From Escherichia coli (GTDB lineage Bacteria > Pseudomonadota > Gammaproteobacteria > Enterobacterales > Enterobacteriaceae), in assembly GCF_003334255.1 (NCBI RefSeq), contig NZ_QOWU01000262.1: a stretch of DNA of 326 nucleotides; one strand, 5' to 3'. Made by a program: the position numbers and the translations under genes. Each line of letters begins with the position of its first letter. Positions within the stretch are counted from its first letter, which is position 1. Below, piece by piece: positions 1-326 of this stretch. The notes below the pieces were generated by a model. It made no database searches. It was not told the origin of the DNA and saw only the letters and a list, made by a program, of their open reading frames with translations.

Positions 1-326
1 TACCTCTCCCGTTTACTCAGTTGTTCAGGCAGATGGTGAAGCAGCTCACCGTTGCCGCAGTAAATGGCGGCATGGTTCGGTACCGAAGCACCAAAGCAGC
101 ACAGCAGAATATCGCCCGCCTGTGCAGAGGACAGGGGCACCCGGTAAAAGCCGGTGACCGCCATATTGTCCAGGTAAAGGTTCTGACCGTTGCGCCACCA
201 GTCATCCTCGCGATGAAAATCCGGCATTTCAGTCCCCGCCAGATGATAAGCATCCCGGAACAGCGTGTAACAGTCCGTCACCCCGTGCTCAAAGCGCCGT
301 CCTGTCAGATGTGGCACACAGCGGAA
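1..326 (-). CDS. K: Internal fragment (5' and 3' ends both outside the window) of a phage lambda gpK-like tail tip assembly protein, covering the NlpC/P60 peptidase-like domain
   Basis: Seen in sequence: the reverse-complement frame with codons at + 326..324 (F) through + 5..3 (R) has 108 sense codons and no stop; the other minus-strand frame in the track stops at 17..19, and the + strand frames I translated stop at 37..39 and 155..157. Translation contains ...EHGVTDCYTLFRDAYH... and ...SVPNHAAIYCGNGELLHH..., matching the Cys and His-His arrangement of NlpC/P60 papain-like peptidases. Established knowledge (recalled, not searched): this closely resembles the C-terminal half of lambda gpK, which has an N-terminal JAB/MPN domain and a C-terminal NlpC/P60 domain. 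The trailing 2 nt (+ 2..1, 'ta' on the coding strand) begin the next codon, so the gene continues below position 1; its start lies above position 326. Confidence 0.87.

Follow-up and report, generated by a model that had tools for sequence, protein, structure and literature searches.

In phage lambda, gpK is required for assembly of the tail, and its location has been described as 'unknown', the protein being unresolved in virion structures (PMC12617516). Genetic work counted gpK among the proteins J, I, L and K that form the tail-tip initiator (PMC3224144), and mass spectrometry left it undetected in virions, leading to the suggestion that it is non-structural (PMC10721106). Iyer et al. 2006 proposed that the JAB and NlpC/P60 domains of TAPK process the ubiquitin-like protein TAPI (PMC1779556); a biochemical activity of gpK is not demonstrated in this cited lambda literature. 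Here we analyzed a 326-nt stretch of Escherichia coli DNA (the window, throughout) that encodes part of a protein of this type. It is virtually certain that the window lies inside the tail-tip assembly gene K of a lambdoid (lambda-tail-type) E. coli prophage, and that it carries a diverged allele of lambda K and not lambda K itself. The gene is well known, very common and entirely ordinary, and holds no novelty.

An internal fragment of a two-domain tail gene

Six-frame translation of the window showed a single frame open from end to end on the minus strand (1..326), comprising 108 codons read from base 326, while the remaining five frames were interrupted by stops. Because 9.7% of shuffles of the window also contained some fully open frame, an open frame of this length is weak evidence alone, and the identification therefore rests on homology, namely on DNA matches of 100% and on PHROG 30 "minor tail protein", which the window hit at E=5.7e-70 and the complete parent protein at E=2.5e-160. 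Within the K gene of PPompW_132418, which is 744 nt long, the window covers nt 307-632 with 100% identity: bases 326 down to 3 are K codons 103-210 of 247, bases 2-1 open codon 211, and neither the start nor the stop codon lies within the window. The minus-strand translation is FRCVPHLTGRRFEHGVTDCYTLFRDAYHLAGTEMPDFHREDDWWRNGQNLYLDNMAVTGFYRVPLSSAQAGDILLCCFGASVPNHAAIYCGNGELLHHLPEQLSKRER. Three short ORFs in other frames (78, 50 and 27 aa) overlap the K frame and were set aside as unsupported chance occurrences.

We next placed the fragment within its protein. The full-length identical parent protein matched Pfam PF14464 Prok-JAB over residues 3-105 (E=7e-15) and PF00877 NlpC/P60 over residues 111-224 (E=1e-12). 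The window encodes the linker between the two domains and most of the C-terminal NlpC/P60 (C40, papain-like) peptidase domain, which occupies bases 3..302 on the minus strand (window residues 9-108) and runs on past the window edge. The N-terminal JAB/MPN domain (E...HxHx7SxxD) lies outside the window and was present in every 100%-identical parent gene examined, where HSHPGGLPWLSEAD was read directly. Full-length similarity to lambda K and a C-terminal NlpC/P60 domain with conserved Cys and His place the protein in the lambda gpK type (PHROG 30; TAPK of Iyer et al. 2006). By tblastn, this family was found in 1,681 phage records, spanning phages of Escherichia, Klebsiella, Salmonella, Ralstonia, Burkholderia, Pseudomonas and Vibrio as well as T1-like phages. 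Membership of NCBIfam TIGR02219 (phage_NlpC_fam) or of the desampylases was considered and rejected, as all NCBIfam matches were sub-threshold: TIGR02219, with a curated cut-off of 81.9 bits, scored 20.4 bits for the window, 24.7 for the full protein and 24.3 for lambda K, and is a distant relative only. A PDB sequence search returned no solved close relative, the best matches being 2kks for the JAB half (E=2e-4) and a match at E=0.01 for the NlpC/P60 half.

Divergence from lambda K and the lambda reference annotation

The preliminary description of this DNA had held that several substitutions separate its translation from lambda gpK (tail tip assembly protein K, UniProt P03729). We aligned the lambda reference J02459 13000-16500 to the window, which matched positions 14438-14763, inside gene K, without gaps at 277 of 326 nt (85.0%), leaving 49 nucleotide differences. 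The translations aligned gaplessly with 96 of 108 residues identical (88.9%) and 12 replacements (lambda residue first, window numbering): I32T, L55M, E56A, A57V, L60F, Q62R, A67S, P70A, V73I, S80A, D92N and I99L. All three motifs named in that description are present in the window and differ from lambda: AGTEMPDF replaces AGIEMPDF (one replacement), DNMAVTGFYRV replaces DNLEATGLYQV (five) and CGNGELLHHLP replaces CGDGELLHHIP (two). Four more replacements, at residues 67, 70, 73 and 80, fall within PLSSAQAGDILLCCFGAS, a stretch that had gone unnamed. The differences so described thus proved real, the alignment giving the values above and not the 100% identity to lambda gpK that would have refuted them, and the window is indeed a lambdoid variant distinct from lambda. 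The further assertion that the substitutions lie in otherwise conserved stretches held in part: the lambdoid alleles of E. coli do share these stretches, but in the family at large the replaced columns themselves are variable.

Lambda K is the nearest well-known named reference and is colinear with the window, yet nothing supports the notion that the window is lambda's own K and the described differences mistaken. Against it stand the 49 nucleotide and 12 amino-acid differences from J02459; moreover, resequencing of lambda isolates gave K regions 99.9-100% identical to that of J02459, and the divergence of the window is therefore not within-lambda variation. We consider this explanation excluded. 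Lambda isolates and their close relatives share at least 99.5% identity over K, compared to 85.0% for the window, which places it outside Lambdavirus lambda; the species threshold is 95% genome-wide nucleotide identity. Furthermore, the prophages that carry the identical allele have HK97-type and not lambda-type head genes.

Codons that differ from lambda comprise 31 synonymous and 12 non-synonymous changes. The dN/dS ratio relative to lambda was 0.065-0.088 by three methods (dS 0.64-0.83), and relative to other alleles it was 0.13-0.15. A dN/dS of about 0.07 relative to lambda indicates that purifying selection on the gene is strong, and its divergence from lambda is old and reflects neither noise nor decay. 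Over the full length, the parent protein of the window and the 247-aa gpK of resequenced lambda are 87.0% identical, with 32 replacements, and the differences are densest at K residues 157-175 and over the last 37 residues of the C terminus (75.7% identical).

The lambda reference itself calls for caution. J02459/NC_001416 annotate K as a protein of 199 aa, with the N-terminal 46 residues of JAB readable upstream in another frame. A single additional G after J02459 position 14266, present in lambdas sequenced independently (PV340536, LC730321) and in many close relatives, restores a 247-residue K colinear with the parent gene of the window; thus, K is annotated as 199 and not 247 aa because one G is missing from J02459. 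The site of this G, at about position 1267 of the lambda locus we extracted, is just upstream of the annotated K start and outside the window. The 199-aa annotation loses the N-terminal part of the JAB domain, including its conserved Glu. Its absence reflects either an error in the 1982 sequencing or a frameshift peculiar to one stock. The same "+G at 14,266" appears in the breseq lambda test data; a full-text literature search found no explicit statement of a frameshift in the lambda K reference. Because K is truncated in the classical annotation, the 247-residue form is the one to use when a protein is compared with "reference gpK". We also observed that the gpK homologue of Gifsy-1 (NC_010392.1 12850-13449, our locus L006) is annotated as exactly 600 nt and 199 aa, as in the lambda reference, and the truncated lambda annotation may have served as the model for its start. 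A separate oddity is MW057783.1, deposited as 'Campylobacter phage CJLB-4' and labelled a Campylobacter jejuni phage: this record has a lambda-like length of 48,361 bp and matches lambda at 99.9% over L-K-I, and it looks like lambda DNA that was deposited under another name, perhaps a contaminant or a control.

Prophage context and integrity of the gene

To the left and right of K in its nearest relatives, the genes are those of a lambda-type tail. A megablast search of 50,697 phage records returned 13 that were 100% identical to the window over all 326 nt: nine records with PPompW-type prophages from Shiga-toxigenic E. coli (PPompW alone in six, and as part of a Stx2a-phage record in three), the three isolates vB_EcoS-569R3, 705R7 and 783R2, and PhiR5_1. 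Stx1a- and Stx2a-converting long-tailed phages came next, at 95-97.5%. Phage records annotate the gene as "phage tail assembly protein" or "tail tip assembly protein K". Matches at 99% or more were found in 877 E. coli records, and among the top matches listed all were 100% identical and annotated "C40 family peptidase"; a homologue was present in 4278 of 5426 complete E. coli genomes, at 14,093 places in all and with a median of two per genome. The preliminary assignment to a gpK orthologue from an enterobacterial prophage is therefore borne out, and the window can be placed in a very common E. coli prophage allele.

The loci of LC567822 and NZ_CP042903, both identical to the window, share the gene order tape measure, M-like, L, K, I, J, such that K sits between the L and I/J homologues of a siphovirus tail module. 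Both prophages are ompW-associated, one by name and the other, in E. coli CFSAN061761, by an adjacent truncated ompW, and the whole 744-nt gene is identical between PPompW_132418 and CFSAN061761. The CFSAN061761 prophage is a mosaic lambdoid prophage, because it combines tail genes in lambda order with HK97-type head genes.

This prophage also raises the question of whether the window derives from a cryptic prophage in which K is a decaying remnant without function. In CFSAN061761 (NZ_CP042903.1), the identical copy sits in a prophage with a frameshifted portal gene, with truncated tail-fibre remnants and the truncated ompW nearby (9674-12420 of our locus L003), and E. coli genomes hold up to 14 K homologues each. 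Many K-bearing E. coli prophages are defective. However, the frame is intact across the window and the full 744-nt gene is intact in the identical copies, dN/dS has the low value given above, and phage records that name a host (PhiR5_1 on E. coli C and the vB_EcoS isolates) contain the very same sequence. We thus consider decay of the gene improbable. The CFSAN061761 prophage copy is probably defective as a phage, though its K gene is intact; as hundreds of records share the sequence, the copy in the window could likewise come from a defective prophage.

The K gene overlaps gene I at its 3' end in some annotations. Two starts are in use for gene I: J02459 and LC567822 put it 103 nt inside K, RefSeq and PV340536 at the stop codon of K, the two positions being 6336 and 6435 in our locus L002. 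A Shine-Dalgarno-like GGGAGAGG lies inside the K coding sequence at bases 3..10 on the minus strand. The ATG that begins the longer version of gene I follows 12 nt downstream of it and is located 10 nt beyond the window; GGGAGAGG may serve as a ribosome binding site. Within the 103-nt K/I overlap, most differences between lambda and PPompW fall at third positions of the K frame. Nevertheless, the I-frame peptide ARICL(Y/H)GDLQRFGRR is conserved too, so that the K- and I-frame peptides are each partly conserved, and either annotated start of gene I may therefore be the true one.

Other elements in the window were few. Rfam gave no match on either strand at E<=1, and a terminator scan of the window returned none. 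A single weak promoter-like match, GTTACA-17-TATCAT (9/12), was observed at window positions 271-243 on the minus strand, in the sense direction inside K, with hexamers identical in lambda; the match is probably due to chance or driven by coding, the identity of the hexamers in lambda stemming from the conserved residues that they encode. Repeats were limited to short two-copy matches and a 10-nt palindrome and were dismissed as being at chance level.

Predicted active site, variable patch and proposed role of the protein

To compare the peptidase domain with its relatives we used a family alignment of 12 diverse homologues. D18-C19 was invariant in all 12, and the Cys codon TGT at bases 270..272 on the minus strand (window residue 19, K residue 121, motif TDCYT) would, going by established knowledge of NlpC/P60 enzymes, encode the catalytic nucleophile. 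N84-H85 was likewise invariant in the 12 homologues; His85, the predicted catalytic His (codon CAT, bases 72..74, minus strand; K residue 187, motif PNHAAIY), aligns weakly with the His of the HxGIY motif in solved NlpC/P60 hydrolases (E 0.01-0.08). Furthermore, His97-His98 (codons CAC CAT, bases 33..38, minus strand; K residues 199-200, motif LLHH) were present in every alignment row that reaches them, the sole row without them being truncated, and they align with the H of 'fiHa' in LytE. From these alignments, one of His97 and His98 is predicted to be the third polar residue of the catalytic triad. The assignment of Cys, His and third polar residue draws on established knowledge of the family together with weak alignments to LytE and Tn916-type hydrolases.

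The predicted catalytic residues are untouched by the 12 replacements that separate the window from lambda, all of which fall at columns that are variable across the family; at position 60 the window has the family-consensus F, whereas lambda is the outlier. Eight of the 12 cluster in the most variable patch, which spans K residues 157-175 (window residues 55-73; bases 108..164 on the minus strand). Of the 49 nucleotide differences, 24 are in the window's middle third. In the family alignment the columns of this patch are variable and contain indels, making it the most variable and indel-prone part. The replacements are best explained as the usual drift between alleles at surface positions that tolerate change, such as is seen throughout the mosaic gene pool of lambdoid phages. 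It is doubtful that the cluster at K residues 157-175 instead represents a specificity patch that co-varies with the I, J or L alleles of each mosaic tail module; if it did, K alleles would not be freely interchangeable between lambdoid phages, and the patch would point to a binding surface of gpK in the tail-tip initiator.

What the protein does is less settled than its identity, and the mechanism outlined here is taken from the lambda literature. A K-type protein would act in assembly of the tail tip, where J, I, L and K are followed by H and M, and would not remain in the finished virion. Its peptidase domains would most likely process or chaperone a tail-tip component, for which the proposed substrate is the ubiquitin-like gpI (Iyer et al. 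2006). We regard such an assembly-time role as peptidase or chaperone as the likeliest one, with moderate confidence. The non-virion status of gpK is judged by its absence from mass spectrometry and from cryo-EM maps.

The NlpC/P60 domain could also be read as a virion-borne peptidoglycan endopeptidase that opens the cell wall at DNA injection. The nearest solved relatives are indeed cell-wall hydrolases (LytE, Tn916-like), albeit at E of 0.01-0.08, and the nearest NCBIfam model is named 'putative phage cell wall peptidase, NlpC/P60 family'; that match, however, reaches only 20-25 bits against its cut-off. Furthermore, mass spectrometry of lambda virions did not detect gpK, three cryo-EM studies did not resolve it, and the fusion to a JAB domain together with the constant adjacency to the ubiquitin-like gpI point to a protein substrate. 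A cell-wall role is thus unlikely, and a role during tail assembly is preferred.

Among described systems, the K of the PPompW-type prophage of Shiga-toxigenic E. coli (LC567822, BCI49299.1) and RefSeq WP_000194723.1 "C40 family peptidase" are the same allele, without a difference in the window. The K homologues of Stx1a- and Stx2a-converting long-tailed phages and of Salmonella Gifsy-1 are members of this family and do not differ from the window in length over the stretch it covers; those of the Stx phages are 90-97% identical, and that of Gifsy-1 is 80.6% identical at the amino-acid level. These homologues represent intermediate alleles, some of which have the MAVTGFYRV patch of the window and differ elsewhere (e.g. 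AGIDMPDFE), and this sharing of patches is consistent with mosaic exchange. Lambda gpK (J02459 CDS 14276-14875) agrees in its JAB and NlpC/P60 architecture, in its catalytic residues and in its L-K-I-J neighbourhood. At the greatest distance, NlpC/P60 cell-wall endopeptidases (LytE, Spr/MepS-type and Tn916 Orf hydrolases) have in common with K the papain-like Cys-His-His motifs DC...., xHxxIY and xxHx at marginal sequence similarity (E of 0.01-0.08); unlike them, the K protein is fused to a JAB domain, is without cell-wall-binding modules and probably has a protein as its substrate.
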